From: a virus | Length of the DNA stretch: 41,164 bases | IMG/VR virus record: IMGVR_UViG_3300030339_000011 | Coordinates: 64,001 to 105,164 of that record | Direction: 5' to 3' (one strand) | Shown here: positions 1-32,673 of the stretch, piece after piece | How the letters are laid out: each line of letters starts with the position of its first letter | Position numbering within the stretch: position 1 is the stretch's first letter | Position numbers and translations under genes: made by a program | The notes under the pieces: model-generated | The model's input: the letters and a program-made list of their open reading frames with translations, nothing else | Told to the model about the DNA's origin: nothing | Databases searched by the model: none

Positions 1-1440
1 ACAATAGGTAATCAATATTTAATAACAGATTATCAGACAGTATATGTAATTCCTAAAACAACTGAGTTAAGTTCAGGAACAACAGAACCTTTATTAGTTA
101 CAGCAAGTGGTATTAATTCATTAAAACCAGAAGCATATTCAGCATTATATCCTCAGGATATTATTTATTATAATTATACTAATAATCAAAGTATGGTATC
201 TGGTTGTACTAAAGGATATATTTATAGAAGGATAGACACAATTCAGGTTAATGACATACCTTTTGATTTTAGAAAGGTAAAGTTCAGAAGATTTCAATTG
301 AATGTTACTAACATTTGGAATAATAGTACGACATACAATAAGAATGATGTTGTTTTAAGTGGTGGAACAACTAAGATTTATATTTGTATGAATAATCTTG
401 TGACTGGAATTGATCCATCCATTGATTCAATTTGGAAATTATTTGAATGGGGTAATTTAAGTTACACAAGTCCATATAAAAATAGTTGGGCTTTGTTCAG
501 TGTTAATATTCCATGTTCGACTGGATATACAGATTATAATATGTTTTGGGATTATTCATCGAGTTTCAATATTTCAATTGAACAGTCATCAACAAATATA
601 ATATCAAACAATAATTCAGTCACACTTGGATCTGGTTTTTATAATAATACTATAGGAAACAATTTTTATGAGAACACAATAGGAAATAGTTTTAATACTA
701 ATACAATAGGAGATAGTTTTTATAATAATTCTATTTCATATGCATTTAATAAAAATAAATTAGGAAACAGTTTCGCTATTAATTCAATAGGAGGAAGTTT
801 TTCTGATAATACAATAGGAAATAGTTTTAATTTTAATGTAATAGGTGATAGTTTTACTTATAATTCAATTGAACGTAATTGTCAATTTAATTTTATAGGA
901 TATGGACTCACTAATAATATTATAGATATCAATTTTGGATATAATATAATAGGAAACGCTTTCACTTTAAATGTGGTAGGAGGAAATTTTGGTACTAACA
1001 CGATAGGAAACAATTCTTCTTTGAATGTAATAGGAGGAAATTTTGGTAATAATAAAATAGGAACTAATTTTGGATATAATTCAATAGGAAGTAATTTTGG
1101 TGCTAATACAATAGGAACTAATTTTATGTATAATACAATAAAAAGTGGATTTGGTACTAATATAATAGGAACTGATTTTGGACATAATTCAATATCAAAT
1201 TATTTTGGTATTAATACAGTAGGAAATTATTTTACAAATAATTCAATAATAGAGACATTTAGTGGTAATACAATAGGAAGTAATTTTGCTCACAATTTTA
1301 TTCAATGTGGTGTTACTGGAACAAATTTTTTATCATCTACTTATGTTTATAATTCATATACAAAAGAAATATTTAGTAATTCTTCATCACAGTTAAAGTT
1401 AATATATGATAAGACTGTTATTGTGAGTGCAAATGCTTAA
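1..1440 (+). CDS. Tail-fibre / receptor-binding-like protein of the nonapeptide-repeat family, 5'-partial (runs off window start)
   Basis: Frame 1 is open from nt 1. Upstream residues (..[34 protein letters not shown]..) and the PGC/GCxKGYIYRRIDT..NDIPFDFRKVKFRRFQ core align with ORFs 3977, 13378 and 30781. About 75 tandem 9-aa xIGxxFxxN repeats follow. Conserved C-terminal tail STYVYNSYTKE..KLIYDK..V..ANA. A hairpin terminator lies downstream. Confidence 0.8.
   Translation, partial: TIGNQYLITDYQTVYVIPKTTELSSGTTEPLLVTASGINSLKPEAYSALYPQDIIYYNYTNNQSMVSGCTKGYIYRRIDTIQVNDIPFDFRKVKFRRFQLNVTNIWNNSTTYNKNDVVLSGGTTKIYICMNNLVTGIDPSIDSIWKLFEWGNLSYTSPYKNSWALFSVNIPCSTGYTDYNMFWDYSSSFNISIEQSSTNIISNNNSVTLGSGFYNNTIGNNFYENTIGNSFNTNTIGDSFYNNSISYAFNKNKLGNSFAINSIGGSFSDNTIGNSFNFNVIGDSFTYNSIERNCQFNFIGYGLTNNIIDINFGYNIIGNAFTLNVVGGNFGTNTIGNNSSLNVIGGNFGNNKIGTNFGYNSIGSNFGANTIGTNFMYNTIKSGFGTNIIGTDFGHNSISNYFGINTVGNYFTNNSIIETFSGNTIGSNFAHNFIQCGVTGTNFLSSTYVYNSYTKEIFSNSSSQLKLIYDKTVIVSANA
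610..1310 (+). repeat. Degenerate 27-nt tandem repeat encoding ~25 copies of a 9-aa xIGxxFxxN unit
   Basis: Period-9 residue pattern in the translation (TIGNNFYEN, TIGNSFNTN, TIGDSFYNN, ...). It produces spurious I/N/K-rich antisense ORFs. Confidence 0.75.
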
Positions 1441-1541: not shown

Positions 1542-3503
1542 ATGGATGAAATAATATATTTAGCTAATCAAAACTGGGTAACTGATATAGTAGGAAATTT
1601 AACAGATGGTAACACAATTCAATATAACACTGAACAAGTTGTATCAGGTTCTATTATATTAGACAAGAATATTAAAGTATATGATATATCAACAGCGTCA
1701 GGATTAACAGTAACTGTAAATACAGGAAATGTTGATATGAGTAAATATGTTCAATTATATTTAAAAATTAAACTTAACGATTATGTGTCATTAAGTTTTC
1801 CAAATAATTTTTTATTTGACAATTTAGAATATCCAACAGAAGTAGGTGAATATATGTATACAATGTCATCATCAGATAATGGCATTACTTGGAGGCTAGG
1901 ACTTATTTATAAAAATATCGCTACTGTTGGAATTGATGAAAATGGATTTGAGATAATAGGTTCAGTTATAAGATATGTTGATGGAGATAATGGATTAGAT
2001 ACTAATGATGGATTATCATGGACAAATTCGTATAAGAATATTCAAACAGCTATTGATTTGTCAAATTCTGGTGATGCAATTTTTGTTAAAGGATCTGAAA
2101 GTGGAATTACTTATTTACCTACTACATTAAGAACAATTGGAGATGCCAGATCTGCATCATTTCTTCTTAAGACTGGAATAAATATATTCGGAGGATTTAT
2201 TGGTACTGAAAGTTCTCTATATGAGCGTGATATGGTATCTTACAAAGAAATATTAAGATTACCATCTGGAAATATAGATTTATTTGTTCCTGTACCAAAA
2301 AATAAAAGTATAATGTCTGGTAATTTATTAGGTTCTCAGATAACTTCTTCATATACTACTCTTTATTGTAGTTCAGGTATAAAATCAGTTGTAAACGGAT
2401 TTCAAATATCGGATTCTTTCAATGACTCAATACCATATTTATGTGCAGGAATTCATTCTTCAGGTACATTAATATTATCAAATTGTCAAATAATTAATAA
2501 TATTGAATCTTACGATTACTGGTATTCATCATGGAGTGGTGTTTATGGAGCAAATCTTAATAACTGCTTAGTATCTTTTAATTCATCAATTGGAAATATA
2601 AATGGTGGAGTAGGAGTTATAAATTCATCAATTAGTAATTCTATAATTTCAAGTAATGTTAATACTGGAACAGTTAATTCTGATATGGGAGACCGATATG
2701 GATATAGTGGATCAGCAGGAGCAATAAATTCATCACTAACGAACTGCTTTATAAGTAATAATTCTACAGTTGGAAGTGTTTCAGCAGGTTTTTTATCATC
2801 ATTTTCAAATTCTGATATAAATAAAAACATTAGCACTGCTGCTAAAGGAACAACACTTTTTATTTCGAATTTAGTAAATTGCTCTATTAACTCTAATGAA
2901 TCTCTTAACTATTTAAGTTACTCAGCAGGATCATATAATTCAAATTTGATCAGTTCAATTGTATATAATAATTATTCAAATGGTAATGTAGGAGGAGTAA
3001 GTGGTGGAACATTAATATCATGCTCAATTTTTAACAACTACGGAGCAAGTCTAGTTGGAGGAGCAGAATCTGCTAATCTTATAAATTGTTCAGTTGTCAG
3101 AAATTCAGGAGGTGGTACAAATAACTGTGTATTAAAGAATACTGTAGTTTGGGGAAATAAATCAATAGCTGGAACTCAAAATAATGTAGTTAATACAAAT
3201 TCAAGTATTGAAGAATATTCTGCATTTGAAAATGACGAACGACCAGGTATTGGAAATATATCAATTTCTACTAATAATAGTGGAGATACTAATAGTCCTT
3301 ATTTTGATATAATATCTTTAAATTCAGGAGTAGTAGATGATGTATTAGTTTGTAATCTTAATATTTCAGAACAATCTTTTTTAATAGACAACGGAATAAA
3401 TAGCGATAATACTTCTGGTTATGGATCTGTTTTTGATGTAAAATCAAATAATAGAATTAGTGGAACTACTATTGATATTGGAGCTTATGAATTTCAAAAA
3501 TAA
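1542..3503 (+). CDS. Right-handed beta-helix (pectate-lyase fold) tailspike/fibre protein with shared N-terminal adaptor peptide
   Basis: N-terminus MDEIIYLANQNWV matches the I-x-LAS-E/Q-EWV motif of four other fibre genes. RYVDGDNGLDTNDGLSWTNSYKNIQTAIDLSNSGDAIFVKG is the typical N-terminal cap of pectin-lyase-like beta-helix proteins. Repeated NC..S.I.N / GG.G motifs. C-terminus TIDIGAYEFQK is the DIGAYE ending common to parallel beta-helix proteins. Confidence 0.7.
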   Translation: MDEIIYLANQNWVTDIVGNLTDGNTIQYNTEQVVSGSIILDKNIKVYDISTASGLTVTVNTGNVDMSKYVQLYLKIKLNDYVSLSFPNNFLFDNLEYPTEVGEYMYTMSSSDNGITWRLGLIYKNIATVGIDENGFEIIGSVIRYVDGDNGLDTNDGLSWTNSYKNIQTAIDLSNSGDAIFVKGSESGITYLPTTLRTIGDARSASFLLKTGINIFGGFIGTESSLYERDMVSYKEILRLPSGNIDLFVPVPKNKSIMSGNLLGSQITSSYTTLYCSSGIKSVVNGFQISDSFNDSIPYLCAGIHSSGTLILSNCQIINNIESYDYWYSSWSGVYGANLNNCLVSFNSSIGNINGGVGVINSSISNSIISSNVNTGTVNSDMGDRYGYSGSAGAINSSLTNCFISNNSTVGSVSAGFLSSFSNSDINKNISTAAKGTTLFISNLVNCSINSNESLNYLSYSAGSYNSNLISSIVYNNYSNGNVGGVSGGTLISCSIFNNYGASLVGGAESANLINCSVVRNSGGGTNNCVLKNTVVWGNKSIAGTQNNVVNTNSSIEEYSAFENDERPGIGNISISTNNSGDTNSPYFDIISLNSGVVDDVLVCNLNISEQSFLIDNGINSDNTSGYGSVFDVKSNNRISGTTIDIGAYEFQK

Positions 3504-3512
3504 ATAATAATT

Positions 3513-3905
3513 ATGAATATATTTAAAAGAACGTATGTAAAAATGATAGATAAAGTTACTATCGAAAAAGCACCAAAAAGTAAAGATGGAATAGTTGGAT
3601 TTAATAACAATTCTGATTTATGTATTGAAAATGGTTACAAAGAATTGAGATTTTCATCTGGAAGTACTGGTTGGAAAATTTACACTGATATGGGTGATTA
3701 TATTCAAGAAGGATTATATGAATATGATTCTTTATCATATGAATCACAAGTATCAGGACTTATTAATTCTGAATATACATATGATCAGCAATTAGCAATT
3801 CAACGAAAAAAATTAGCTGGAATAGATGAAGCAATTTTTAATCAATTTAATGTATTTTGTGAGATATGTAAAAAAAGTATAAAACTTAAAATCATAGGAA
3901 ATTAA
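3513..3905 (+). CDS. Hypothetical protein, paralogue of ORF 17675 (shared IENGYKE motif); candidate fibre-associated/assembly factor
   Basis: 130-aa ORF 9 nt downstream of the beta-helix gene. SDLCIENGYKELRF matches TYSIENGYKEVIYV in ORF 17675, which likewise follows fibre-module genes. Terminator follows. Confidence 0.55.
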   Translation: MNIFKRTYVKMIDKVTIEKAPKSKDGIVGFNNNSDLCIENGYKELRFSSGSTGWKIYTDMGDYIQEGLYEYDSLSYESQVSGLINSEYTYDQQLAIQRKKLAGIDEAIFNQFNVFCEICKKSIKLKIIGN

Positions 3906-3940
3906 TAAAAAAACTCAGTTAATTTAACTGAGTTTTTTAT
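3906..3940 (+). terminator. Intrinsic-terminator-like hairpin (AAAAAACTCAGTTAATTTAACTGAGTTTTTT)
   Basis: Perfect palindrome plus T-run. Same stem as at 1455, 5724 and 16052. Confidence 0.7.
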
Positions 3941-3946
3941 TTATTG

Positions 3947-3976
3947 TTTTTTAATATATACAAATAAAAAAAATTA
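3947..3976 (+). promoter_or_regulatory. Promoter-like motif TTTTTTAATATATACAAATAAAAAAAATTA abutting the ATG
   Basis: Same motif as at 1514, 13344 and 30745. No Shine-Dalgarno sequence. Confidence 0.35.
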
Positions 3977-5722
3977 ATGGTAAATATACAGTTAGCGAGT
4001 GAAGAATGGGTTGAAGGAAGATTATCTGGAACAACAGGTGGATCAACAGGCACCTCTGGTACATCAGGTCAAAATGGGACTAGTGGAACAGCAGGTAAAT
4101 CTGGAACATCTGGACAGAATGGATCAACTGGAAACACAGGAAGTTCCGGTAATTCAGGAACGTCAGGAACTTCAGGACAGAATGGTTCAGTTGGATATGG
4201 AAGTTCTGGACAAAATGGTACATCAGGAACATCAGGTATTAGTATAAGTTCTAGTGGAGGTACAAATTCAGTTACAAATGTCACATATAGTGGATTAGTA
4301 ACATTAATTAATAATAGTGGATTAACTACTAATCAAGCATATTTAATTACTGATTATCAAACTATACATAGAATACCTGAAACAACTATTATAAATTCAG
4401 GAACAACAGAACCTTTATTAGTAACTGCAAGTAGTGTTAATACATTAAAGCCTGAGACGTATTCAAGATTATATCCGAATGATATAATATATTATGATTT
4501 CAATAATAATCAAAGTATGATGCCTGGATGTGCAAAAGGATATATTTATAGAAGAGTTGATACATTAAAAAATAATGATATTCCATTTGACTTCAGACAA
4601 GTAAAATTTAGAAGATGGCAATTGAATGTTACAAACATTTGGAATTCAGGATCAACATATATGAGAAGTGATGTTGTTTTAATCAGTGGGACAACACAAA
4701 TTTATATATGTTTAATTGATAATGTAATTGGTGTGAATCCATCAACACAAACAAATCAAATTATTTGGAAACGTTTTGAATGGGCTAATTTAAGTTATTC
4801 TAGTCCAAATATAACAAATTGGTATCTTTATTTTAGTATTCCAACATCCACTTTATATACTGATTATCTGATGTTTAATACATATGATAGTACAATTTAT
4901 TCTAATAGAATAAAACAAGATTACATTGGAGATGGAGATATACTTAATTGTAATAATACTGTATTTTTTGGAAATAATATTAACTGCAATACAATTGAAT
5001 CATATTTTAGTTATAATAGTATTGGAGCTAGTTTTTTTAATAATACAATAGGAGGAAATTTTGAACACAATAGTATCGGAGTTAATTTTACATTTAATAC
5101 AATTGAAAGTAATATTATGAATAATAGTATTGGAGCTAGTTTTTATAATAATACAATAAGAAGCATGTTTCAATATAATACTATTTCAGATGTGTTTTTT
5201 TATAATAGTATTGGAGAATATTTTATTCATAATTATATTGGTGAAGCGTTTTCTCGTAATACTATTGAATCATATTTTAGTTATAATAGTATTGGATATG
5301 CTGCTCTATGTAATACTATTGGAAATGGCTCGCAAAATAATAGGATTGGTTCTAATTTTCAAAATAATAATACAGGAAATTCTTTTGGTGGATATTTTAA
5401 TGGTAATATTATTGGGAATTATTTTCAATTTAATACTATTGGAAATGGATTTGACATCAATAACATTGGAAATGTTTTTAGCTATAATACTATTGGTAAC
5501 GCGTTTAATCGTAATGTAATTGGTAGCAATTTTAAGATGAATAATGTTTGTGATAATTTCAATATTGGTAATTATGATGTTGGTATTAACAATTATCATT
5601 TATCAGATTTTACAGCATCTACATATATTTATAATAGTTACACAAAAGATTTATATGTTGATTCATCTGTGATTCAAAAGTTAGCATACGATAGAAATAC
5701 TATTGTTAATGCAAATGCATAA
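3977..5722 (+). CDS. Tail-fibre-like protein: shared N-terminal adaptor, Gly-X-Y collagen-like linker, conserved core, 9-aa repeat solenoid, conserved C-terminal tail
   Basis: N-terminus MVNIQLASEEWV. About 20 G-X-Y triplets (GTSGTSGQNG..). Core YLITDYQTIH..EPLLVTAS..LYPNDIIYYDF..PGCAKGYIYRRVDT..DIPFDFRQVKFRRWQ. About 22 nonapeptide repeats. C-terminus STYIYNSYTKDL..KLAYDRNTIVNANA. Confidence 0.85.
   Translation: MVNIQLASEEWVEGRLSGTTGGSTGTSGTSGQNGTSGTAGKSGTSGQNGSTGNTGSSGNSGTSGTSGQNGSVGYGSSGQNGTSGTSGISISSSGGTNSVTNVTYSGLVTLINNSGLTTNQAYLITDYQTIHRIPETTIINSGTTEPLLVTASSVNTLKPETYSRLYPNDIIYYDFNNNQSMMPGCAKGYIYRRVDTLKNNDIPFDFRQVKFRRWQLNVTNIWNSGSTYMRSDVVLISGTTQIYICLIDNVIGVNPSTQTNQIIWKRFEWANLSYSSPNITNWYLYFSIPTSTLYTDYLMFNTYDSTIYSNRIKQDYIGDGDILNCNNTVFFGNNINCNTIESYFSYNSIGASFFNNTIGGNFEHNSIGVNFTFNTIESNIMNNSIGASFYNNTIRSMFQYNTISDVFFYNSIGEYFIHNYIGEAFSRNTIESYFSYNSIGYAALCNTIGNGSQNNRIGSNFQNNNTGNSFGGYFNGNIIGNYFQFNTIGNGFDINNIGNVFSYNTIGNAFNRNVIGSNFKMNNVCDNFNIGNYDVGINNYHLSDFTASTYIYNSYTKDLYVDSSVIQKLAYDRNTIVNANA
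4025..4240 (+). repeat. Gly-X-Y (collagen-like, proline-free) triplet-repeat coding segment
   Basis: Translation is [50 protein letters not shown].. Its reverse strand yields a spurious P-rich ORF (4069..4284). Confidence 0.75.
4920..5540 (+). repeat. 27-nt degenerate tandem repeat (~22 nonapeptide units)
   Basis: Period-9 IG..F..N pattern in the translation. Confidence 0.7.
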
Positions 5723-5723
5723 A

Positions 5724-5759
5724 ATAAAAAACTCAGTTAATTTAACTGAGTTTTTTTAT
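5724..5759. terminator. Bidirectional hairpin terminator between convergent genes
   Basis: AAAAAACTCAGTTAATTTAACTGAGTTTTTTT. A-run and T-run flank the stem, so it reads as a terminator on both strands. It sits between the + gene ending at 5722 and the - array ending at 5756. Confidence 0.7.
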
Positions 5760-6212
5760 TTCAATACTATTAATTTTTTATATGAACTTGGAAGTAGAGA
5801 TGACCAATCAGCTTCTCTAATTTCTAAATTTTTCTTACTTCTTATTAGTTCAGGATATCTAAATCCTTGTGAATTTTTTTTTGGTGAATACTTATTTAGT
5901 TGTTTATAATCATTTATAATTTCAGTTATAAATTTTTCAATTTGTATATAATTATTTATATAATTATTTTCAAAGAATTTCCAAACATATTCATAATGAA
6001 AGTAAATAATTTTATATTTAATATTTAAACTAAATAAGCATATTCCATTAACTTGATTTGGCGATGTTATTTTTATATTATATAACTTAAACAATTTAAG
6101 TTTTCTAATATATTGTTCGTCATAGAAATAAAAAACGTAATCATTCCATTCTTTATCTACTACTGGATAGCAATATAAAATTTTGCTAATCAACCAATTT
6201 GATAATTCTTCT

Positions 6213-6220
<8 letters not shown>
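5756..6220 (-). CDS. Member of the 13-gene tandem paralogue array (MSKEELSxW..CYP..FYDE..IRKLKL.K..N..G.CLF family), last in the operon
   Basis: 154 aa. N-terminus MSKEELSNWLISKILYCYPVV..FYFYDEQYIRKLKLFKL..GICLF. Its start overlaps the upstream neighbour by 8 nt. Confidence 0.75.
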
Positions 6221-8857
<2,637 letters not shown>

Positions 8858-8861
8858 ATTA

Positions 8862-9781
<920 letters not shown>

Positions 9782-10180
9782 TTATAATCTTGATTTTATA
9801 ATACTATTTTCATATATATTTTTAATCATACCAGGTAAAGGATTATAATCGAATAAAATTGGATGATCTTTTAGTAGTTTTTTTATTAGTTTTTGAATAT
9901 CATAGTAGTCATATGAATAGTTTTTTTCAAAGAACTTCCACAATTCTTCACTCAGCCATAAAATTCTAAATTTATTATCCTGATTAAATAAAAATGTTCC
10001 TTCAACATTATTAATTGAAATTAACTCTTCTGTATTATTTAATTTAAACAATTTAAGTTTTCTTATATATTTTTCGTCATAAACTAAGAATACACTATCT
10101 GGATATAATTCTACTTTAACTTGATAGCAGGAATTATATTTATTCCAGAACCAATCATATAAATCTTTTTTATACATCAT
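9782..10180 (-). CDS. Array paralogue (MMYKKDLYDWFWNKYNSCYQVK..LVYDEKYIRKLKLFKLNN)
   Basis: 132 aa. Confidence 0.7.
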   Translation of the reverse strand: MMYKKDLYDWFWNKYNSCYQVKVELYPDSVFLVYDEKYIRKLKLFKLNNTEELISINNVEGTFLFNQDNKFRILWLSEELWKFFEKNYSYDYYDIQKLIKKLLKDHPILFDYNPLPGMIKNIYENSIIKSRL

Positions 10181-10579
10181 TTAAATATAAACTTATTTTC
10201 TTGTAATTTTTCAATGATATATTAGCTGTTGATGAATTCATTGTTGGTAAATACATATTTAAATTAGTAATATTTTTTAGTATATCTTTCATGAATTTCT
10301 GATTATCATAGTAATCATCGGAATAGTATCTGAATAAAAAAGTCCAAATATCATCATTACAACGAAATTTTAATTTTTTAAAATCTTGTTGAAATATACA
10401 AGTTCCGTTAATTTCATTTGTAATTTTTATGTCTTGATTATTTATTTTGCCTAATTTAATTTTTCTAATGAATTGTTCATCATATATCCAAAAAATTATA
10501 CTTGGATAATCCTCATGTTTAACTTTATAGCATTTTTTTAATGTCTCCAATATAAAATCACTTAATTCTTCTTTTGTCA

Positions 10580-10580
<1 letters not shown>
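10170..10580 (-). CDS. Array paralogue ([57 protein letters not shown])
   Basis: 136 aa. Confidence 0.75.
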
Positions 10581-11354
<774 letters not shown>

Positions 11355-11487
11355 ATGATAATATTTAATTTACAAAGATACAAAAATAAATCTGATTAAT
11401 AAACTTTTTTATAATATAATCATACAATATTTTGAGCATAGTTCGTTTTCTGTGTTTAATTTTTAAATCATATTAAAAAATTAGTTG

Positions 11488-12008
<521 letters not shown>

Positions 12009-12062
12009 ATATTATTAACTAATAATTGAAAAACTTTTTTATAAACATCTCATATAATAAAT

Positions 12063-12278
12063 ATGACAAAAACAATTGAATTATTAGAGAAAGAGATTAA
12101 GTTATTAACTGAAGCCAGAGATGGAATTGGAAAAGCATTTAATGTTTTGAAAAGAGATAATATAGAAGATGATCATCTCAGAGAATTGTATAATGAATTT
12201 GATTATAAATTAAAAGATTATCAAAATTCAATTGATGATATTAAAGAGAACAATTTAAGATCTTGCGTATCTAATTAA
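12063..12278 (+). CDS. Hypothetical small coiled-coil protein
   Basis: 71-aa charged helical ORF. TATAAT-like box directly upstream of the ATG. Followed by a GC-rich structured 3' region and a hairpin. Confidence 0.5.
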   Translation: MTKTIELLEKEIKLLTEARDGIGKAFNVLKRDNIEDDHLRELYNEFDYKLKDYQNSIDDIKENNLRSCVSN

Positions 12279-12334
12279 AAATATTCACGGTTACATGAAA
12301 CCTCGATAATCATGTGACTTCCTCGCCAGGGACA

Positions 12335-12365
12335 AAAGCTATCATGTAAAAGTGATAGCTTTTTA
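12335..12365 (+). terminator. Hairpin plus T-run (AAAGCTATCA-8 nt-TGATAGCTTTTT)
   Basis: Perfect 9-10 bp inverted repeat at the end of the unusually GC-rich 12279-12334 segment. Confidence 0.5.
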
Positions 12366-12388
12366 GGCATTTATTAAAACTAAAAAAC

Positions 12389-12607
12389 ATGAAATTAAAA
12401 TTTGAAATTGATTTAGAAGACGTTGATCAGGTACTTAATTCAATTGATCCAAGACTTATTGAAAGGTATCTTCGCAATAAAAAATTAGAAAACTGTTTAA
12501 ATCCTACTGAACTACCTCCACTTGAATTAAACCCTATATTTTGTACAGATGATTATAATATAGATTTTCCTTTAAACTCATATCAAAACACATACGTTAA
12601 TATATAA
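12389..12607 (+). CDS. Hypothetical protein, paralogue of ORF 12612
   Basis: MKLKFEIDLEDVDQVLNSIDPRLIERYLRNKKLEN aligns with MNLNVNIDIDDILNSIDVKDLEQYIRRRKLEE of the next ORF. Confidence 0.6.
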   Translation: MKLKFEIDLEDVDQVLNSIDPRLIERYLRNKKLENCLNPTELPPLELNPIFCTDDYNIDFPLNSYQNTYVNI

Positions 12608-12611
12608 TAAA

Positions 12612-12872
12612 ATGAACTTAAATGTAAACATTGACATAGATGATATATTGAATTCAATTGATGTAAAGGATCTTGAACAATATATTCGTAGAAGAAAACT
12701 TGAAGAAATAAATAATTCAAATTCTGTTATTATTAATTCAGCATCTACAACTATACCACTTAATCTACCTAATAAAATTAAGTTAGATAATTTGGATTTT
12801 AATTTGGATTTATTTGATGATGAACCATGTGATGAATTTGATTTTGATGATGATGAAAGTTTTAAATTATAA
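12612..12872 (+). CDS. Hypothetical acidic protein, paralogue of ORF 12389
   Basis: Shared N-terminal motif with 12389. Acidic C-terminus (DDEPCDEFDFDDDE). The antisense ORF 12578..12922 is low-complexity and rejected. Confidence 0.6.
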   Translation: MNLNVNIDIDDILNSIDVKDLEQYIRRRKLEEINNSNSVIINSASTTIPLNLPNKIKLDNLDFNLDLFDDEPCDEFDFDDDESFKL

Positions 12873-12882
12873 TAATTATAAA

Positions 12883-12933
12883 ATGGTATGCAATAAATAC
12901 CTTTTATAGGGATATAATGCATACCATTTTTTT
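12883..12933. terminator. Hairpin (ATGGTATGCA-loop-TGCATACCAT) plus T-run between convergent genes
   Basis: 10-bp perfect inverted repeat followed by TTTTTTT, located between 12872 (+ gene end) and 12950 (- gene end). Confidence 0.55.
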
Positions 12934-12949
12934 GTAAAACAATTTAAAA

Positions 12950-13306
12950 TTATCCTAATGAATCTATACTAATTATAATATCTTTATAAGTGGTAACTAC
13001 AATTCTATATTGATCATATTCATAAGGTTTAAATTTCAATTCATCGTCCTTAGTACCTACAAATATATGATATTTTCTAGGAAGTATTATTTCTCCGCTA
13101 TCTTTCAACTCATCAGTACCGTTATCAAAATTTATAATGCTATTTACATTTAGATTAATTAAATAATTAAATTCATCTGTCTGTTTAATAGGAGCAACAT
13201 TGTTACCATACTGATTGACCCCTACTCTTGGGTTTTTATATATTCCATTCATATAAGTATATATATTTATACCATAAACTCCTTTTAAAAAATTGACAAT
13301 TATCAA
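12950..13306 (-). CDS. Hypothetical protein (lone minus-strand gene)
   Basis: 118-aa ORF that is not low-complexity, flanked by the hairpin at 12883. No recognisable motif. Confidence 0.5.
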   Translation of the reverse strand: MIIVNFLKGVYGINIYTYMNGIYKNPRVGVNQYGNNVAPIKQTDEFNYLINLNVNSIINFDNGTDELKDSGEIILPRKYHIFVGTKDDELKFKPYEYDQYRIVVTTYKDIIISIDSLG

Positions 13307-13343
13307 TAGTTAAATCTTCTTAAAAAATTATTTTTATTTCTAA

Positions 13344-13377
13344 TTTTTAATATATAGAATAAATAATTTTTTAATAT
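13344..13377 (+). promoter_or_regulatory. Promoter-like motif TTTTTAATATATAGAATAAATAATTTTTTAATAT abutting the ATG
   Basis: Same motif family as 1514, 3947 and 30745. Confidence 0.35.
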
Positions 13378-16035
13378 ATGATAAATATTCAATTAGCTAG
13401 TGAAGAGTGGGTTAATAGTCAATTGACTGGATCCACAGGTGGAGGTTCTGGCGGAACATCAGTTATAGATTTAACTTATAATGATTTACTAAATTTAATT
13501 AACTCGAATAGTTTAATTCCTAACCAAGCATATTTGATTACTGATTATCAAACAGTACATCAGATAACAAACACAAGTGATATTAATTACGGTATAAATG
13601 AACCGTTATTGGTAATATCAAGTAGTTTTAATACATTAAATGTTGAGGCTCATTCAAGTTTATATCCTCAGGATATAATATATTATAATTATAGAAATGA
13701 TTCTAATATGGTACCTGGCTGTCAATATGGATATATTTATAGAAGAATAGATACGATTCAAGATAATGATATATCATTTGATTTTAGACAAGTTAAATTT
13801 AGAAGATGGCAGATAATTGTAAATAATGTTTGGAATTCAGGAACAACATATCAAAAAAATGATGTTGTTTTATACAATGGATCAATTTATATTTGTTTAT
13901 ATAATAATACTATTGGAGATAATAATTTTTCATATAATTGGAATCAATTTAAATGGAATAACTTGTCTTATGTGAGTCCAACTGAAAATGTATGGAGCAT
14001 TGGGAATTCAAACATTTCATGTAGTACAGGTTACACTGACTATAATATGTGGTCTGATATTAATAATTATAATTATTCTCATTCTAATAAGATAGAACAA
14101 CATAATAGTAATACCAATAATGGTGATATTATAAGCAATAAAAATACTATAATTTTTGGAAGTTATTTTCAATATAATAAAATTATTGGAAATAATTTTA
14201 TTAATAATAGCATAGGTGGTTATTTTCAAAATAATATAATTGGAAATTATTTTAATAATAATAGTGTTGGTGATTTTTTTCAAAATAATAATATTGGTGA
14301 TTATATTTTTGATAATATTATTGGAAATAATTTTATTTTTAATAATATTATAAATCAATATTATAATAATAATATTGGTATGGATTTTCAAAATAATACA
14401 ATAGAAAATAGTTTCAATCAGAATAGTATTAGCTATAATTTTATTTTTAATAATATTGGAAAAAGTTTTCAAAATAATAGTATTGGATATTATTTTGTAT
14501 CAAATACAACTGGAAATTATTTTGGAGATAATAATATCAAAAGCTATTTTTCAGATAATATAATTGGAAATAATTTTGGTAGTAATAAAAACAGAGATTA
14601 TTTTCAATATAATAATATAAAAAATGAGTATCGTAATAATACCACAGATACTAATTTTAATAATAATACAATTGGAGATTCATTTTATAATAATACAATT
14701 GGAACTACTTTTTATCAAAATAATATTAATCACCAGTTTAGTTATAATATAATTGGTAATGATAGTAAAGATAATATTATTGATCATGATTGTCAATATA
14801 ATACAATAGGAAATAGTTTTCATGATAATATAATAGGCAACATGTGCAGTAATAATATATTTGGAAATGGTAATAATAGTAATATCATTAAAAACTCATG
14901 TTCTCGTAACACATTTGGTATTAATAATGTTAATAATACGATTGAAAGTTATAGTATGAATAATACATTTGATGGTAATTGTAGTAATAATGTTATTGAA
15001 TATCAATGTAGCTTTAATATATTTTCTGGTAGTTGCTTTAATAATTCAATTGGAAGCAACTCTTCAAATATTACTATATTAAATGGACAAGGTAATATAT
15101 TTGGTATTCAATGTAATACGATTAATATAGGCAATAATAGTAAATATAATACATTTAAAAATTATTGTCAATTTGATACAATTGGTACTGATTTTTGGAA
15201 TAATACAATTGAAAACAATTTTGTGCGTAACAAAATTGGAAATTATTGTCAGTATAATATATTTGGTGGAATTATTGTAGATAGTATTTTAGGTAATTAT
15301 TTTAGTTATAATACATTTGGTAGTCAGGCTAAATGTAATCTAGGTGATAATTATTCCAATAATATTTTTAATAGTTCATGTAATTTGTCATTAGGAGGAT
15401 CAGGATTTTCTAATAATATATTTGGTAGTCAATGTAATTTGTCAATTGGAGATAATTGTTATGATAATGTATTTGGAAATCAATGTAATTTGACAATAGG
15501 AAGTCAATTTTCAAATAATAATTTTGGTAGTCAGATTAACGGTTCTATTTCTGATAATTGTTATAATAATACATTTGTTGGACAATGCAATTTTACAATC
15601 GGTAGTAATTTTCAAAATAATACAATTGGAAGTCAATGTAATTTAACAACATTAGACAATTTTCAATATAATACATTCGGTAGTGGCTGTGAATTTACAG
15701 TAGGAAATAATTTTAAAAATAATACTATTAATAATTATTCTCAATCTAATACAGTTGGAGAAGATTTTAAGAATAATATTGTTGGTAGTAATTTTTCTGA
15801 GAATACTATTGGTGATAGTTTTAATAATAACACAATTGGTAGTAGTTTTCAAAATATTATAATTGGTAGTAATTTTAATATGAATACTGTATGTGACAAT
15901 TTTAATTATTTTAATTTAGATTTAACATCATCAACGTATATTTATAATACTTACACAAAAGAATTATTTGTTAATTCAAACGGAGAGCAAAAATTAATTT
16001 ATGATAAAATGGTTATTGTAGATGCAAATTTATAA
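13378..16035 (+). CDS. Large tail-fibre-like protein (885 aa): shared N-terminal adaptor, conserved core, ~65 nonapeptide repeats, conserved C-terminal tail
   Basis: MINIQLASEEWV N-terminus and short GGGSGG linker. Core [56 protein letters not shown]. Very long xIGxxFxxN / NC..G repeat region. C-terminus STYIYNTYTKELFV..KLIYDKMVIVDANL. Confidence 0.85.
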   Translation: MINIQLASEEWVNSQLTGSTGGGSGGTSVIDLTYNDLLNLINSNSLIPNQAYLITDYQTVHQITNTSDINYGINEPLLVISSSFNTLNVEAHSSLYPQDIIYYNYRNDSNMVPGCQYGYIYRRIDTIQDNDISFDFRQVKFRRWQIIVNNVWNSGTTYQKNDVVLYNGSIYICLYNNTIGDNNFSYNWNQFKWNNLSYVSPTENVWSIGNSNISCSTGYTDYNMWSDINNYNYSHSNKIEQHNSNTNNGDIISNKNTIIFGSYFQYNKIIGNNFINNSIGGYFQNNIIGNYFNNNSVGDFFQNNNIGDYIFDNIIGNNFIFNNIINQYYNNNIGMDFQNNTIENSFNQNSISYNFIFNNIGKSFQNNSIGYYFVSNTTGNYFGDNNIKSYFSDNIIGNNFGSNKNRDYFQYNNIKNEYRNNTTDTNFNNNTIGDSFYNNTIGTTFYQNNINHQFSYNIIGNDSKDNIIDHDCQYNTIGNSFHDNIIGNMCSNNIFGNGNNSNIIKNSCSRNTFGINNVNNTIESYSMNNTFDGNCSNNVIEYQCSFNIFSGSCFNNSIGSNSSNITILNGQGNIFGIQCNTINIGNNSKYNTFKNYCQFDTIGTDFWNNTIENNFVRNKIGNYCQYNIFGGIIVDSILGNYFSYNTFGSQAKCNLGDNYSNNIFNSSCNLSLGGSGFSNNIFGSQCNLSIGDNCYDNVFGNQCNLTIGSQFSNNNFGSQINGSISDNCYNNTFVGQCNFTIGSNFQNNTIGSQCNLTTLDNFQYNTFGSGCEFTVGNNFKNNTINNYSQSNTVGEDFKNNIVGSNFSENTIGDSFNNNTIGSSFQNIIIGSNFNMNTVCDNFNYFNLDLTSSTYIYNTYTKELFVNSNGEQKLIYDKMVIVDANL
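14130..15910 (+). repeat. About 1.8 kb of degenerate 27-nt tandem repeats (~65 nonapeptide units)
   Basis: Period-9 pattern in the translation. In the second half the repeat changes flavour (..NCxxxxFG.QCN.. units). Confidence 0.7.
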
Positions 16036-16051
16036 AATATAAAAATAGATA

Positions 16052-16090
16052 AGAAACTCAGTTAATAATAGTTAATTGAGTTTTTTTTTA
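16052..16090 (+). terminator. Hairpin terminator, AACTCAGTTAA family, with one G-U wobble
   Basis: AAACTCAGTTAATAATAGTTAATTGAGTTTTTTTTT, 3' of the 885-aa fibre gene. Confidence 0.65.
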
Positions 16091-16116
16091 TCATTATAGA
16101 CTTATTTTGCTTTGAG

Positions 16117-16150
16117 TTTTTTATATATACTATTATAAACAAAAAAAAAT
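16117..16150 (+). promoter_or_regulatory. Promoter-like motif TTTTTTATATATACTATTATAAACAAAAAAAAATA
   Basis: TATATATAC.A..AAAAA core similar to the fibre-gene motif, 10 nt upstream of the 16160 ATG. Confidence 0.3.
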
Positions 16151-16159
16151 ATAACAAAA

Positions 16160-16489
16160 ATGACAAATTTAATATCCCTAAGTGAAGGAGTTTGGATGCC
16201 AAAAGATCGAGTATTTCCAACAGAAGATCAGAAAAAAATATTATCAAGTACAAATTCTGGAGATACTGCAGCTAAAAATGATATATTAGCATTAATCGCA
16301 TCTGGAAACACTGCAAATCCTTCTGATGTAAGCAAAGCAATATTAGCATATAATTTGAAAAAACCAGCATTAGTAAATCCAACTGATGTGTATAAATTTA
16401 TCGCATCTGCAGTAACGATCGAAGGTGATACAGTAACTGGATTTATAAATTATATGATGAATGGCGTTATAAATAAAATAACATTTTAA
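16160..16489 (+). CDS. Hypothetical protein with internal short repeat (A.IASGNTANPSDV / ALVNPTDV)
   Basis: 109-aa ORF, the first gene after the terminator/promoter pair, immediately upstream of fibre-module genes. Confidence 0.55.
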   Translation: MTNLISLSEGVWMPKDRVFPTEDQKKILSSTNSGDTAAKNDILALIASGNTANPSDVSKAILAYNLKKPALVNPTDVYKFIASAVTIEGDTVTGFINYMMNGVINKITF

Positions 16490-16492
16490 TCT

Positions 16493-16909
16493 ATGGCTTC
16501 AGATATAATACATTTAGCAAGTGAAGAATGGGTTAGTGATATTTTCAGTGGATTAACTGTTGCAATTGGTAGTGGAGTCACAATCAATACTGTATATAAA
16601 TATAAAAAAATAAATTCTCCTACTGGAAATTTAAATTTAGATAATTGGACTGAAACATATATTGGAACAATATCGAGTGGAAACACAATAACTGTTATTC
16701 TTCCTACTCCAGCAAATGGGTTAGTTAATGAATCAATTTTAATATTCAAAACAGGAAGCTCAGTACCTACAATTTATCAACCGACTGGAGTTGTTTGGCG
16801 TGGAAATATTCCTATTTTAGGAATCAATTCTACTTGGACAATTGTTTATGAACAGGTATTTACAGAAACTGCTTTTGAAATTTATGCAGTAGCAATTAAA
16901 AACATTTAA
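16493..16909 (+). CDS. Short protein carrying the shared fibre N-terminal adaptor peptide (candidate anchor/adaptor subunit of a split receptor-binding protein)
   Basis: MASDIIHLASEEWVSDIFSGLT matches the N-termini of ORFs 1542, 3977, 13378 and 18077. Only 138 aa, directly followed by the LamG lectin gene. Confidence 0.65.
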   Translation: MASDIIHLASEEWVSDIFSGLTVAIGSGVTINTVYKYKKINSPTGNLNLDNWTETYIGTISSGNTITVILPTPANGLVNESILIFKTGSSVPTIYQPTGVVWRGNIPILGINSTWTIVYEQVFTETAFEIYAVAIKNI

Positions 16910-16910
16910 T

Positions 16911-17654
16911 ATGAAATATTATAGCGGAGAATTATTTAACCCAGAAGAAATTATACCATTTAAAGGTGTAGATAATTTATGGGCATCAGCAGATATTATA
17001 ACTGGTATCACTACAACTGGAATAACAGTTTTAGATTTGGATGCAGGAAATCTAGCATCTTATCCTAAATCTGGAAATATTTGGTATGATTTAACAGGAA
17101 GAGAAAATAATGCGTATCTAAATACTGGAAATGAATTTCAAACAATAGGAGGAGGTAGCATGAGGTTTGACGGAACACAAGGAATGGGTGTTGGTGTCTC
17201 ACCAGATTTTAGTTCATTAAATACCAACATAACATTAGATTCTGTTATTTATTGTGATAATTTAAATGATAATAGACAAATATGTTCAAAAGGGTTTGGA
17301 TATCAATATAGATTCAGAGTACAGAATAATGGAAGTTTATGGATTTATTGTACAAATAATGGAGAGATGTCTGGTGGTCATATATATTTAAATACCTGGA
17401 CATATGTAGCAGCAGTATTAAGTGATACTGGATTCAGAATTTATATAAATGGTGAATTAGTAAATTCAAATTCTGTTCCATATAATCCAGCAACACCATT
17501 TTCAGATACATCTGGACATTATGTTGGAGCATACAATTCAATGCAAGAGCATTTTTCTGGGTATATTGCAACTCAAAGAAGATATAATAGAGCATTAAAT
17601 GATAGTGAAATTATGAATAATTTTACTGCTATAAGATCCAGATTTGGAATATAA
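16911..17654 (+). CDS. Concanavalin-A-like lectin / laminin-G (LamG_3-type) domain protein
   Basis: SGNIWYDLTGRENNAYLNTG..MRFDG.. then TWTYVAAVLSDTGFRIYINGELV.. then FSGYIATQRRYNRALNDSEIMNNF. This is the canonical LamG signature (WxhVA.., LY.NG.., F.G.I..V.IYNRALS..EI). Confidence 0.75.
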   Translation: MKYYSGELFNPEEIIPFKGVDNLWASADIITGITTTGITVLDLDAGNLASYPKSGNIWYDLTGRENNAYLNTGNEFQTIGGGSMRFDGTQGMGVGVSPDFSSLNTNITLDSVIYCDNLNDNRQICSKGFGYQYRFRVQNNGSLWIYCTNNGEMSGGHIYLNTWTYVAAVLSDTGFRIYINGELVNSNSVPYNPATPFSDTSGHYVGAYNSMQEHFSGYIATQRRYNRALNDSEIMNNFTAIRSRFGI

Positions 17655-17674
17655 TATAAAAATTAATTGATAAT

Positions 17675-18034
17675 ATGAAAGCAAAATTAATAGAAGGAAA
17701 AATAGAATTTTTTACACAACCAAATTGGCTGTTAGGAGATTCAACAACATATTCAATTGAAAACGGATATAAAGAAGTTATATATGTAACAGGAACAACA
17801 ACTGTTTATGAAGATGATTTAAATGTTTTTGTTGGAATGCCAACTCACATTGATAATAATGATGAGATAAAATTTAAAAGAAGTATGGCGTATAAAGATA
17901 GAAGTGATTCATATTATATGGCATATCAAAAATATCTGGCTCTTAATAATATAGATAAAGCTAATCAATCAAAAGATTTATGGCTTTCTGAAATAAATAA
18001 AATAGATCTTGAATTTCCTTATGTTACTGAATAA
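17675..18034 (+). CDS. Hypothetical protein, paralogue of ORF 3513 (IENGYKE motif)
   Basis: TYSIENGYKEVIYV matches SDLCIENGYKELRF of 3513. Both lie downstream of fibre-module genes. Confidence 0.55.
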   Translation: MKAKLIEGKIEFFTQPNWLLGDSTTYSIENGYKEVIYVTGTTTVYEDDLNVFVGMPTHIDNNDEIKFKRSMAYKDRSDSYYMAYQKYLALNNIDKANQSKDLWLSEINKIDLEFPYVTE

Positions 18035-18070
18035 ATTTATATTCAAAAATAAAGAAAATAAAAAAAAATA
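18035..18070 (+). promoter_or_regulatory. AT-rich promoter-like motif (TTTATATTCAAAAATAAAGAAAATAAAAAAAATA)
   Basis: Related to the fibre-gene upstream motif. No Shine-Dalgarno sequence. Confidence 0.3.
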
Positions 18071-18076
18071 TTAATT

Positions 18077-21000
18077 ATGAGTGAAATAATATATTTAGCT
18101 AGTCAGGAATGGGTTAGAGGATTTGAAAGCGGATTAACTGGAAGTAGTTCTGCAAGTTATTGGGAAAAAGTACCACCAACTATTGGAACTACAACTGAAT
18201 TTCCTCTTTGGTGGTATAGTGGGGATTATAATATATATGGAAAAGATTATTATAATTTTGACGCTGTAACAGCAGGTATTAGAGGAAACCAAGGAGTTTA
18301 TTTTAATAACGGATTTTCAACTTATTTTGGAACTTCAACACCAGGTAGTACATCTACTAAATTTTATGCTGCACTTTTAGATAATCAATTATCTACTATT
18401 TCATATAATGAATGGTCTGGATATAATGGATTTTCAATAAGACTAACTCGTGAAGCGACTTCAGGTGAAACATTATTATCTGATGGAGAAATAATTTCAT
18501 CTGGATTCACAGATATAGACGGAAATGTATATAGTTGTGTTAAAATTGGTACTCAAATTTGGACTAGAGAAAATTTAAGAGTTATAAATGGATATGATTA
18601 TGCATCATCTGCAACAACTTCATTAGTAACTTTGGATGATCATGATTGGTGGTATAATACTAGTACTCAATATCCTGCTTATGCTGAATATCCAATTGAA
18701 AATATTATAGAAGATTATGCAATATTTAATTTACCTTTTACCATGCCTAGTGGATATACTCAAAATGATATAAATGTTATATACGGTAGAATATATTGCT
18801 TATTTGCAGCTAACACATTAATACAAAATAATCCAGATGGTTGGAGAGTACCTTTAAATTCTGATTTTGAAACAATGACGTCTTATATGATAAGTGTCAA
18901 TCCAAATATAACAATAGATAATGTTGGCGATGCATTAAAGTCAATAAGACATGCAGATTATGAAGCAATAAAACCTATTAATAGTACTGGATATGTAATA
19001 GTAGATTGTAATTTAGTTGTAAGTGGTGGTACAATGAGTGGAGATGGATCAAAAATAACAAATATATCAGCAACTAATGTAGTTGGAATTCCAACTAATT
19101 ATGCTCCATCTGATGGTGCTCAATATTTAACTGTTGAAGGAAAAAATGTTGATTCTGGAATAAATGGAGAGGAATTACAAACTGTATATGATTTAGCAAA
19201 ATCTATAAATCCGAGTTCAAATAATCCTATAAACATAATTATATATCCTGGATATTACGGAATGCCTAATGGACTTAGTTTAGATACTCCTTATATAAAT
19301 TTAATATCAGCAACAGGAGAATTAGATGTTAAAATTGAATTTGCTGGCGCTATTGTTATTTCAGATAATATTAAATTGACAGGTATATTTTTTGGAGGTA
19401 GTGGATTAAAACTCACTGGAAATTTTCCAGGGTTATGGATTGAAAATTGTTCAGGAATGATAGATGGGGGTAATATTTTAACGTATCCAGATACTAATTT
19501 ATCTGGAACTTTTAAAGATATAAATTTAGTTAATGGTAATGGATTTGGTTATATACAAGAAGCATCTGGATATTTTGAAAATATATATCATAAAGGTGGA
19601 AATTTATTTTATGATACTAAAATTATATCTGGTATATTCAAAAATTGTAATGCTGCAAACGGATTTGGTGTAGGAGGAGCTGTCATATCATCTGGTGCGA
19701 CATTTGAAAATTGTACATGTGATGATGCTGGATTTGGAGGAGGAGGAGGTTGTATTATATCATCTGGAACTACTTTTATTAATTGCAATTCTGGTGATAA
19801 TTCATTTGGTAATAGTGGAATAGAAGTGTCTGGTACATTTATTAATTGTAATGCTGGAAATTCTTCATTTGGTGCTCATTGTATGACATCTGGAACATTT
19901 GTGAATTGTACAGCAAAAGGTAATACTGGATCTTTTGGTGATTCTAAACAAGGTGGAACATTAACAGGTAGTTTATATAATTGTAGATTGACTACGCCAG
20001 GTACATTTGGACTTCCTTCAAGTGGAGGTACTATTCTGTTATGTATTGACGGTTATGGAGCAGTAATAGGAGCAGGAGATTTTGCTCCATCAGATGGAAA
20101 TCAATATTTAACAGTTAAAGGAATCAGTAGTGATCCTGGAACAAATGGAGCTGAGTTACAGAATGTTTATAATATAGCTAAGGCTTTAAATCCAACAATA
20201 ATTAGTCCAATTAATATAATTATTTATCCTGGTTATTATGGAATGACATCATTAATTAGTTTAGATACTCCTTATATAAATTTAATTTCTTCAACAGGGG
20301 AATTAGATATTGAAATTGGTTATAGTGGTATATTAATTATCACAGATAATATTAAATTAATTGGTATAAATTTTACAGGTATGGGATTAGAAATAAGAGG
20401 AAATTTTCCTGGATTAAGGATTGAAAATTGTTCAGGACAAATTAAAGGTAGCACAATTGATAATAGTACTATTTTATCTGGAACATTTAAAAATTTAAAA
20501 TTAACAAATAACACATTTGGATCAGGTGTTTCTGACTTTCCTGGTCATTTTGAAAATATAACATCAGACGGTGCGTTGTTTAATGGAGAGAATGGAGATT
20601 TATCTGGAAGATTTATAAATTGTACTGCTGAAACTGGATTTTCTTCAACATCTTTATCTGGTACATTTATTAATTGTAATTCTGGAGATTTCTCATTTGG
20701 AACAAATGAAGTTGGAGCAAATGTATCTGGAACATTTATAAATTGTACTGCTGGAAATACTTCATTTGGAATTGATGGTATTGCATCTGGAACATTTATA
20801 AATTGTACAGCAAAAAGTAAATCTTTTGGTGACTCTACACGAGGTGGAGCATTAACAGGAAGTTTATATAATTGTAGATTGACTACTCCAGGTACATTTG
20901 AAATACCTTCAAGTGGAGGTACAATTATATTATGTATTGACGGTTATGGAAAAATAATTGGGGGAGGTGATTTTGCTCCAACAATAGGAACTCAATTTTT

Positions 21001-23929: not shown

Positions 23930-24111
23930 TGGAACGTATTAATAACATATCAATAGATTTTATTTCTTGCACTCAATTTGTTAGCGGTATGCCTGCAGAA
24001 ATATCACTTATCAACATAACAGTTGAAACATTAGTACCAGGTGATATAACATTTTTTGGTATAAGTACAGATCCTGCATTACCAAGTATAATAGAATATC
24101 AATTTAATTAA
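23929..24111 (+). CDS. Micro-protein ending ..SIIEYQFN (cassette component)
   Basis: 60-aa ORF whose ATG overlaps the upstream stop (TAATG). The C-terminal FFGISTDPALPSIIEYQFN is conserved with ORFs 25636 and 27880. Confidence 0.6.
   Translation: MERINNISIDFISCTQFVSGMPAEISLINITVETLVPGDITFFGISTDPALPSIIEYQFN

Positions 24112-30744: not shown

Positions 30745-32673
<1,929 letters not shown>

Follow-up and report, generated by a model that had tools for sequence, protein, structure and literature searches.

The 41,164 nucleotides (nt) analyzed here, referred to as the window, are positions 64,001 to 105,164 of the IMG/VR virus record IMGVR_UViG_3300030339_000011. They hold five genes whose protein products begin with the same peptide of approximately 20 residues, and within the window this motif is restricted to fibre-like genes. 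The peptide follows the consensus M-x(2-4)-I-[QYH]-L-A-S-[EQ]-E-W-V-x4-G-x-T and occurs in two interchangeable subtypes, A and B. An earlier inspection of the DNA letters and their open reading frames (ORFs), in the following called the original prediction, had proposed that the shared N-terminus attaches five receptor-binding-type proteins to the virion. ORFs are named after the window position of their first base, and lengths of proteins are given in amino acids (aa). The motif genes are listed below, together with the gene that reaches into the window from upstream.

1..1440, plus strand: 3' part of a 596-aa collagen-like and nonapeptide fibre gene, the start of which (MINIQLVSEEWVEGRLSGTTGG) lies upstream of the window
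1542..3503, plus strand: motif gene of subtype B, peptide MDEIIYLANQNWVTDIVGNLT at nt 1542-1604; 630-aa body unlike the others
3977..5722, plus strand: motif gene of subtype A, peptide MVNIQLASEEWVEGRLSGTTGG at nt 3977-4042; collagen-like stalk, fibre body, period-9 solenoid
13378..16035, plus strand: motif gene of subtype A, peptide MINIQLASEEWVNSQLTGSTGG at nt 13378-13443; fibre body, CBM_5_12 match, long period-9 solenoid
16493..16909, plus strand: 138-aa motif gene of subtype B, peptide MASDIIHLASEEWVSDIFSGLT at nt 16493-16558; small conserved domain, first gene of a triad
18077..22084, plus strand: motif gene of subtype B, peptide MSEIIYLASQEWVRGFESGLT at nt 18077-18139; FISUMP domain and three repeats of ~300-330 aa

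The N-terminal peptide and its carriers

Five matches to L-A-[SN]-x-[EN]-W-V were found in the six-frame translation of the window, all of them on the plus strand and one apiece in ORFs 1542-3503, 3977-5722, 13378-16035, 16493-16909, and 18077-22084, where they start 5-9 residues past the ATG. The form I-x-L-A-[SN]-x-x-W-V likewise yields exactly five matches, at residues 4-14 of the same ORFs. In 300 simulated windows (second-order Markov model), the strict pattern did not occur once, as compared to five observed matches, and a much looser pattern reached a mean of 0.44 matches per simulated window. The common start ascribed to the five ORFs is thus borne out. Along this line, a listing of all non-nested ORFs of the window revealed the motif on none of the approximately 80 others, and the other gene families of the window with conserved termini of their own consist of paralogs. 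Consequently, the motif is neither a codon-bias artefact nor a general feature of the genome, an objection that had been raised together with the original prediction.

Five is, however, too low a count for the genome as a whole. Just upstream of the window, overlapping metagenome contigs contain two more motif genes, of 508 and 525 aa, as well as a gene for a GT25 glycosyltransferase. A third one is the 596-aa gene straddling the window edge: the frame of ORF 193-1440 is open from window base 1, and the whole gene is seen at L011 8109-9899. Adding these three to the five genes of the window gives at least eight motif genes in this genome, located within approximately 33 kb. In the ENA assembly k141_773381 (L002/L011, compared with the window genes 13378 and 12950), the 885-aa motif gene is split into ORFs of 33 aa and 833 aa and the gene adjoining it is shortened, which represents either a strain-level disruption or an assembly error.

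We collected 19 distinct carriers, which show about seven architectures. Among them, I, W, and V never vary and L, A, and S hardly do; the start of the motif lies at residue 4-6 throughout. In all 19 carriers of the lineage it is present in a single copy and at the extreme N-terminus only. The bodies behind it comprise the nonapeptide solenoid, the 1542-type, the 138-aa protein, FISUMP plus repeats, FISUMP only, FISUMP plus solenoid, and the P0012-type.

The distribution of carriers differs between strains and relatives. The IMG/VR contig L008 of a sister strain is syntenic to the window, with the same flanking 150-aa gene and the same array of small paralogs, and bears five different motif genes of 283, 300, 441, 400-411, and 811 aa at the syntenic site. 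Two other contigs that matched the specific DNA pattern in IMG/VR, L007 and L009, were discarded as chance matches in non-coding frames. In a distant relative (L016/L018), the motif is kept on the orthologs of 16493 and 18077, the former with the other peptide subtype, the latter without FISUMP and with one repeat instead of three. The distant relative also holds a decayed cassette: at L018 2215-2532, a 1542-like gene is reduced to its C-terminal ~105 aa, and its 131-aa companion, the ortholog of 3513, still comes after it. At a separate locus, P0010 (480 aa) stands as a lone motif gene.

A 29-position profile of the motif was compared with 1.84 billion representative proteins and gave 10 matches at E<=1e-3, nine of which lie at protein residues 1-30. 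Those matches that could be placed (fragments of window genes, L008, P0003, and P0010) belong to this lineage, and the match P0012 has the motif on yet another body. An exception is given by the tenth match, P0006 (537 aa; L027 1612-3225), encoded on an unrelated phage-like contig with 60% guanine-cytosine (GC) content, where its gene is flanked by genes with classic tail-fibre motifs. In P0006 the core GLASQNWV is found within approximately 10 tandem 20-aa repeats (VTNGLASQNWVEAFHYVDKS), and the motif core may be a more general fibre building block. In a metagenome scan with the peptide pattern, 34 stretches matched and two of them were confirmed, the confirmation being made against the first sequence.

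No family covering residues 1-22 of the five motif proteins was found in Pfam and NCBIfam (E<=0.1) or in PHROGs (E<=0.01). The PDB sequence search with the motif profile returned only chance matches to the 'EWVS' of nanobodies, and those with P0006, ORF 1542, and ORF 18077 returned nothing meaningful. Nucleotide and protein searches against GenBank phages gave no match to the locus, ORF 18077, ORF 1542, or ORF 26144. A possible likeness to the 'LAT..E' repeat of Phage_fiber_2 or to 'ATTAFV'-type motifs is unsupported by Pfam, and a literature search for the strings gave nothing relevant.

The similarity between the carriers ends near residue 22. In an all-against-all BLAST comparison, 1542 and 16493 have only the N-terminus in common with other carriers, and 18077 shares beyond it only the FISUMP region with L008 proteins. 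Once residues 1-22 are removed, the pairwise scores among 16493, 1542, and 18077 do not exceed those of shuffles (z 1.6, 1.2, and -0.2), and profile comparison aligns 14 columns only. An extended N-terminal domain common to 16493 and 1542, which BLAST aligned over 66 residues, was rejected on these grounds, as the pair stands at z 1.6 without its first 22 residues.

At the nucleotide level, the motif starts align with a mean column identity of 62%. Nine core codons vary synonymously among the eight genes of the same genome (ATA/ATT, TTA/TTG, GCT/GCG/GCA, GAA/GAG, GTT/GTA) while the amino acids are fixed. The pattern points to selection on the peptide rather than to recent gene conversion, for which an alignment of the first codons had originally been proposed as a test; this test is negative for the core. 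The only exception is the pair of 3977 and the upstream 596-aa gene. Their first ~70 aa, comprising motif and collagen stalk, are near-identical, and their nucleotide identity amounts to 0.96 over the nine codons after the core.

Bodies, alternative anchors and cassettes

The nonapeptide solenoid, the LamG neighbour, and the FISUMP domain with three large repeats had all been read from the letters, and autocorrelation, Pfam/NCBIfam matches, and repeat comparison agree with this reading. The solenoid regions show a period-9 autocorrelation of 0.28-0.41 against a background of ~0.07-0.1, and the three ~300-330 aa repeats of ORF 18077 have a mutual identity of 39-56%. In ORF 3977, a collagen-like G-X-Y stalk (aa 28-81) directly follows the motif and is succeeded by the conserved fibre body and the period-9 solenoid; its Pfam Collagen match starts at residue 28, and the motif is the sole conserved element before it. 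Of the beta-helix predicted for ORF 1542, there remains a 'choice-of-anchor Q' match of the C-terminus (E 3e-5, just under the curated cutoff), while the beta-helix itself is unconfirmed. Since 3977 and 13378 are paralogous, the window holds four architectures and not the five that had been counted.

Three further genes accompany the motif genes 1542 and 16493.

3513..3905, plus strand: 130-aa gene in the same cassette as 1542, with an 'IENGYKE' patch in common with ORF 17675
16911..17654, plus strand: LamG/ConA-like lectin-fold protein without the motif (Pfam Laminin_G_3, 1.1e-19)
17675..18034, plus strand: 119-aa third gene of the triad (phrog_2432, unknown function)

For the product of 3513 we infer a possible role as fibre assembly factor. 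The triad [134-138 aa][LamG][118-119 aa] is kept in the divergent relative (L016, L018), and the PHROG matches of ORF 16911 fall inside virion proteins of 900-1350 aa. Based on these two observations, the 16493 product may act as a plug whose small domain holds the LamG protein 16911, a candidate cargo devoid of the motif, as the original prediction had suggested. A fusion of 16493 with the LamG gene by read-through or frameshift was considered and rejected, because the two genes share a frame in the relative but not in the window.

The nonapeptide fibres share a conserved body, LITDYQT...EPLLVTA...YPxDIIYY...GYIYRRxDT...FDFRxVKFRRW. Searches with tblastn matched this body to the tail fibre of Clostridium phage phiCT453A (E 2e-12), the gene of which is located directly after baseplate J and XkdU, and to gp99 of the Sphingomonas jumbo phage PAU (E 2e-19), located downstream of the tail sheath gene. 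Identity to these homologues is 38-42%; in the 1049-aa gp99 the shared domain lies near the C-terminus. Homologues of the body were also found in the 636-kb uncultured phage LR756504.1, with 26.6% GC in the region sampled, and on contigs binned with Bacteroidales, Paludibacter, Lentimicrobiaceae, and Ignavibacteriota genomes. Judged by these homologies, the nonapeptide-solenoid body is a phage tail-fibre module.

One additional gene of the window has this body behind a different N-terminus.

30781..32673, plus strand: nonapeptide fibre paralog with an alternative anchor; T4_gp9_10_N (aa 3-51), Gly/Ser/Thr-rich stalk, same body

Its residues 3-51 match PF07880 T4_gp9_10_N with E 4.5e-8 and 33.8 bits (cutoff 25), covering the first ~51 positions of the model only, and the ortholog at L018:3837-5609 reaches 28.6 bits. 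In T4, the T4_gp9_10_N domain is part of gp9 and gp10, both of them baseplate proteins. The N-terminus that had been called 'classic' is thus identified as a Pfam domain above its cutoff, and the claim of at least two attachment modules, the motif and T4_gp9_10_N, holds. PF07880 stands on ORF 30781 at the exact position that the motif takes on the other fibres, and the motif itself has no detectable similarity to it.

The N-terminal part of the fibres is exchanged beyond this case, too. The phiCT453A tail fibre, which shares the body domain and similar short repeats, has a DUF3751 N-terminus instead of the motif before its body, according to the annotation of the record. In other lineages, the body is preceded by varied short N-terminal modules and a Gly/Ser linker, e.g., MGLSTTYTKAEIDYLLQNLG or MPTFIKTGLWE...LIKDNSGG. 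P0011 bears the motif and P0014 a different N-terminus of 38 aa; from residue 25/39 on, their identity is 84% across 139 residues, a clean swap of the N-terminal module. On a contig of a Lentimicrobiaceae metagenome-assembled genome (L036 348-3404), three neighbouring genes (410, 359, and 196 aa) have one different N-terminal module in common, MKISHKSSKKDRI.AEI..., whereas their bodies differ, one of them being the nonapeptide fibre. This is an independent instance of a design with one module and many bodies.

The GC content of the window is ~25% throughout, contigs with window genes reach 243 kb, and related contigs are catalogued as IMG/VR viral genomes. The downstream flank is formed by a long array of genes of 60-100 aa typical of phage early regions. 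A giant eukaryotic virus, considered in view of the low GC, collagen-like genes, GT25, leucine-rich-repeat (LRR) genes, and paralog arrays, was dropped because of the T4_gp9_10_N domain and the tail-fibre homologues in phiCT453A and PAU. The entity is an uncultured large tailed phage. No Shine-Dalgarno sequence was found in the 22 upstream regions examined, which together with the FISUMP domains suggests a host from the Bacteroidota.

The fibre genes are delimited by repeated non-coding elements.

1456-1491, 3908-3938, 5726-5756, and variant 16053-16084, no strand: palindromic hairpin with T-runs, bidirectional terminator-like, at cassette boundaries
30693-30725 and 32677-32712, no strand: second hairpin type, bracketing the ORF 30781 cassette
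1521-1534, 3955-3968, 13351-13363, and 30754-30766, plus strand: promoter-like box TATATA[GC]AA(A)TAAA upstream of the ATG

Near-identical perfect palindromes with flanking A/T runs bracket the cassettes of 1542 plus 3513, of 3977, and of 13378, and the hairpin half-site occurs 8 times where 0.29 occurrences are expected by chance. These palindromes look like bidirectional terminators, and recombination between them could also be a route to the exchange of cassettes. Further hairpin sites are located at 28090-28120 and 29212-29239. The box TATATA[GC]AA(A)TAAA, to our eye loosely reminiscent of T4's TATAAATA, has just four plus-strand occurrences in the window, each right before the ATG of an independently transcribed fibre gene, and is a candidate late promoter. 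A promoter-like box and terminators of their own accompany 1542, 3977, and 13378, while 16493 and 18077 appear to belong to one operon that extends from ORF 16160 to ORF 27880 and ends at the hairpin 28090-28120.

A putative docking peptide and its alternatives

With moderate confidence, we interpret the ~20-residue N-terminus as a lineage-specific virion-docking peptide that serves a cassette-organized repertoire of receptor-binding proteins (RBPs). Each fibre or spike gene would form an insulated cassette, in which the late-type promoter box and the gene are enclosed by a terminator hairpin on either side, and would encode the peptide, a flexible or collagen-like linker, and a distal receptor-binding body. 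Trimerization would come first, and the N-terminal peptides would then plug into sockets of a common type, putatively located on the baseplate or a primary fibre of the virion and encoded outside the window. Given a common socket, a peptide-bearing body of any kind could be mounted, such that the plug would stay constant while bodies are gained, lost, or shuffled between strains. ORF 30781 with its separate gp9/gp10-type plug would probably be mounted directly in the baseplate. We read the peptide as an anchor because T4_gp9_10_N and the annotated DUF3751 occupy the same position on homologous bodies, and because of the N-terminal swap between P0011 and P0014 and the parallel in L036.

The attachment role originally predicted is supported in part and indirectly, in that the peptide behaves as an exchangeable N-terminal module in an anchor-equivalent position. 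Neither a docking partner nor a T4gp10-like branching domain was detected among the window proteins with Pfam, PHROGs, and NCBIfam, and this is the first of several observations that weigh against docking. The sole gp9/10-type match among the window proteins is the N-terminal segment of ORF 30781. AlphaFold2 models are unusable, with a predicted local distance difference test (pLDDT) score of 37 for ORF 16493 (4-sequence alignment) and 32 for ORF 1542 (single sequence). The internal repeats of P0006 are more easily reconciled with a generic fibre element that associates with itself than with a plug for a different protein. We know of no characterised precedent for eight fibres on one identical peptide. 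In CBA120 and RaK2, every fibre is attached at a separate site through an N-terminal domain of its own (PMC10253068).

At least eight RBPs on one tag raise a question which is absent from known branched systems, i.e., whether there are many equivalent sockets or mosaic virions. In the latter case, at least eight RBPs would compete for one limited class of identical sockets, and virions would carry random combinations of fibres as a combinatorial hedging of host range, which we regard as improbable. The alternative is one scaffold with many equivalent sockets showing all fibres at once. To our knowledge, both arrangements are unlike every characterised branched system, where each fibre has a dedicated site.

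Short docking peptides as such are well documented. Conserved peptides of 7-29 aa were described on secondary RBPs of the Klebsiella anchor-branch groups (KP32, KP34, Menlow, PhiK64-1), and N-terminal peptides of 7/11 residues on the SP6/K1-5/K1E tailspikes (PMC6872550); conserved docking peptides are experimentally required for virion incorporation (PMC13352976). The motif resembles these Klebsiella/SP6-type peptides in that a short, group-specific N-terminal peptide is combined with otherwise unrelated RBP sequence and with swapping of bodies. Their function is the docking of exchangeable RBPs, which we transfer to the motif by analogy. In contrast to the motif, they have partners that can be recognised (a T4gp10-like branching domain or an adaptor protein), the like of which was not found among the window proteins, and they serve one to few RBPs per peptide type as opposed to at least eight genes in one genome. 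Moreover, peptide sequences, hosts, and phages are unrelated, the present lineage being uncultured, with ~25% GC and contigs of >240 kb.

CBA120 (TSP1-4), RaK2/PhiK64-1 (gp526-534), and PhiKp24 are likewise large myophages with clustered RBPs and conserved N-terminal parts (PMC10253068; bioRxiv 10.1101/2022.03.15.484430). They differ by folded N-terminal domains (D1, XD/gp10-like) in a defined hierarchy, where we find one near-identical peptide of ~20 aa. The Mu G-segment and the P1 C-segment also combine a constant N-terminal part with alternative distal parts and change host range, but do so by one constant exon and a site-specific invertase. Here, every motif gene is complete with its own start codon, and all can therefore be expressed at once. 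An invertible-segment or shufflon system of the Mu G or P1 C kind was rejected, since each gene has its own ATG and the core codons differ between copies; a recombinase did not appear among the ORFs scanned, which do not cover all small ORFs.

Instead of plugging into a partner, the peptide might be a self-association element, that is, an N-terminal trimerization nucleus or cap and a generic building block of fibres. P0006, where the core is used as a tandem 20-aa repeat in a fibre-like protein among tail-fibre-type genes, points in this direction. The same holds for 3977 and the upstream 596-aa gene, in which the motif directly precedes a collagen-like region, which needs registration or nucleation. 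We nevertheless consider this explanation unlikely. The motif is confined to a single copy at the extreme N-terminus in all 19 proteins of the lineage, the 138-aa protein and the unrelated bodies would not obviously need the same nucleus, and homologous bodies bear baseplate-type anchors (T4_gp9_10_N measured, DUF3751 annotated) and not other oligomerization motifs. Self-association and docking are not mutually exclusive.

We are more doubtful about a recognition tag that addresses a shared assembly factor, either a chaperone of the 3513/17675-type or the GT25 glycosyltransferase, and not the virion. Small conserved genes do follow some motif genes (3513 after 1542; 17675 after 16493/16911), a GT25 gene lies between the upstream motif genes, and another one lies beside the fibre homologue in the megaphage LR756504.1. 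However, 3977, 13378, 18077, and the three upstream motif genes have no adjacent small gene, and ORF 30781 carries the same body without the tag. Furthermore, the fibre chaperones known so far act on C-terminal domains.

We consider it very unlikely that the conservation lies at the nucleic-acid level, with the shared 5' segment acting in translation initiation or as a patch of homology through which cassettes recombine or undergo gene conversion. In favour of this, cassettes have promoter boxes and hairpins in common, identity in the 27 nt before some ATGs is 85-93%, and 3977 and the 596-aa gene agree almost completely over their first ~70 aa. Yet the synonymous variability of the core codons and the low column identity contradict it, the peptide is kept in relatives with divergent DNA, and a patch of 27 nt is short for homologous recombination. 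Finally, a chance or compositional artefact of an AT-rich genome, for which nothing but the low GC content could be put forward, is practically refuted by the composition-matched simulations, the position of all matches at gene starts, and the motif-free ORFs.

If the N-terminal peptide is a universal plug, a simple rule would apply to one uncultured clade of huge phages with Bacteroidota as probable hosts: an RBP is mounted whenever a body of any kind is joined to peptide and linker. All RBPs in these genomes could then be listed from sequence by motif search, strain-level turnover of host range would be visible as cassette exchange, and a minimal tag of ~20 aa would be available for grafting foreign binding domains. 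New in this study are the peptide sequence and the unusually large number of its users. Conserved N-terminal anchors on modular RBPs are already well established, and our finding therefore extends the present understanding and overturns nothing.

Further gene families

A GT25-family gene is located among the collagen-like fibre genes at L011 5745-6359 (upstream of the window), L008 6146-6760, and L021 13567-14199, and a GT25-looking gene, with N-terminal similarity only, follows the fibre homologue in LR756504.1. The GT25 family includes collagen galactosyltransferases. Glycosylation of the fibres is thus possible.

Between the fibre cassettes lie 13 tandem paralogs of 116-168 aa with a conserved N-terminus opening [ST], at 5756-11354 (minus strand), 11556-12008 (plus strand), and 30263-30694 (plus strand). 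Five copies of this family are present in L008 (1237-3634), others in L028-L030, and members flank P0010, the lone motif gene, as well; no family match was found for these paralogs. At 22099-28086, a triplicated cassette is composed of an 88-aa gene (MIQIT...), a 503-570 aa gene with a GDGTREYP-type N-cap, and a 60-73 aa gene ending IIEYQFN. The 88-aa gene is absent before the second copy, and the third copy is 49% identical in L016. The proteins of this cassette may be further RBPs without the motif.

Many small genes start with MKYIKKFE or MITKFKIYE, end with ...NKFNI/L, and overlap by ATATGA as stop/start (28155-29094; L011 458-1290; L026; L028). They include LRR proteins and represent a second, unrelated case of conserved termini in this genome. 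In the early-gene-like region, eight tandem paralogs of 62-83 aa (...KIGDKVI...KKL.KL..) are encoded at 36243-38048 on the minus strand.

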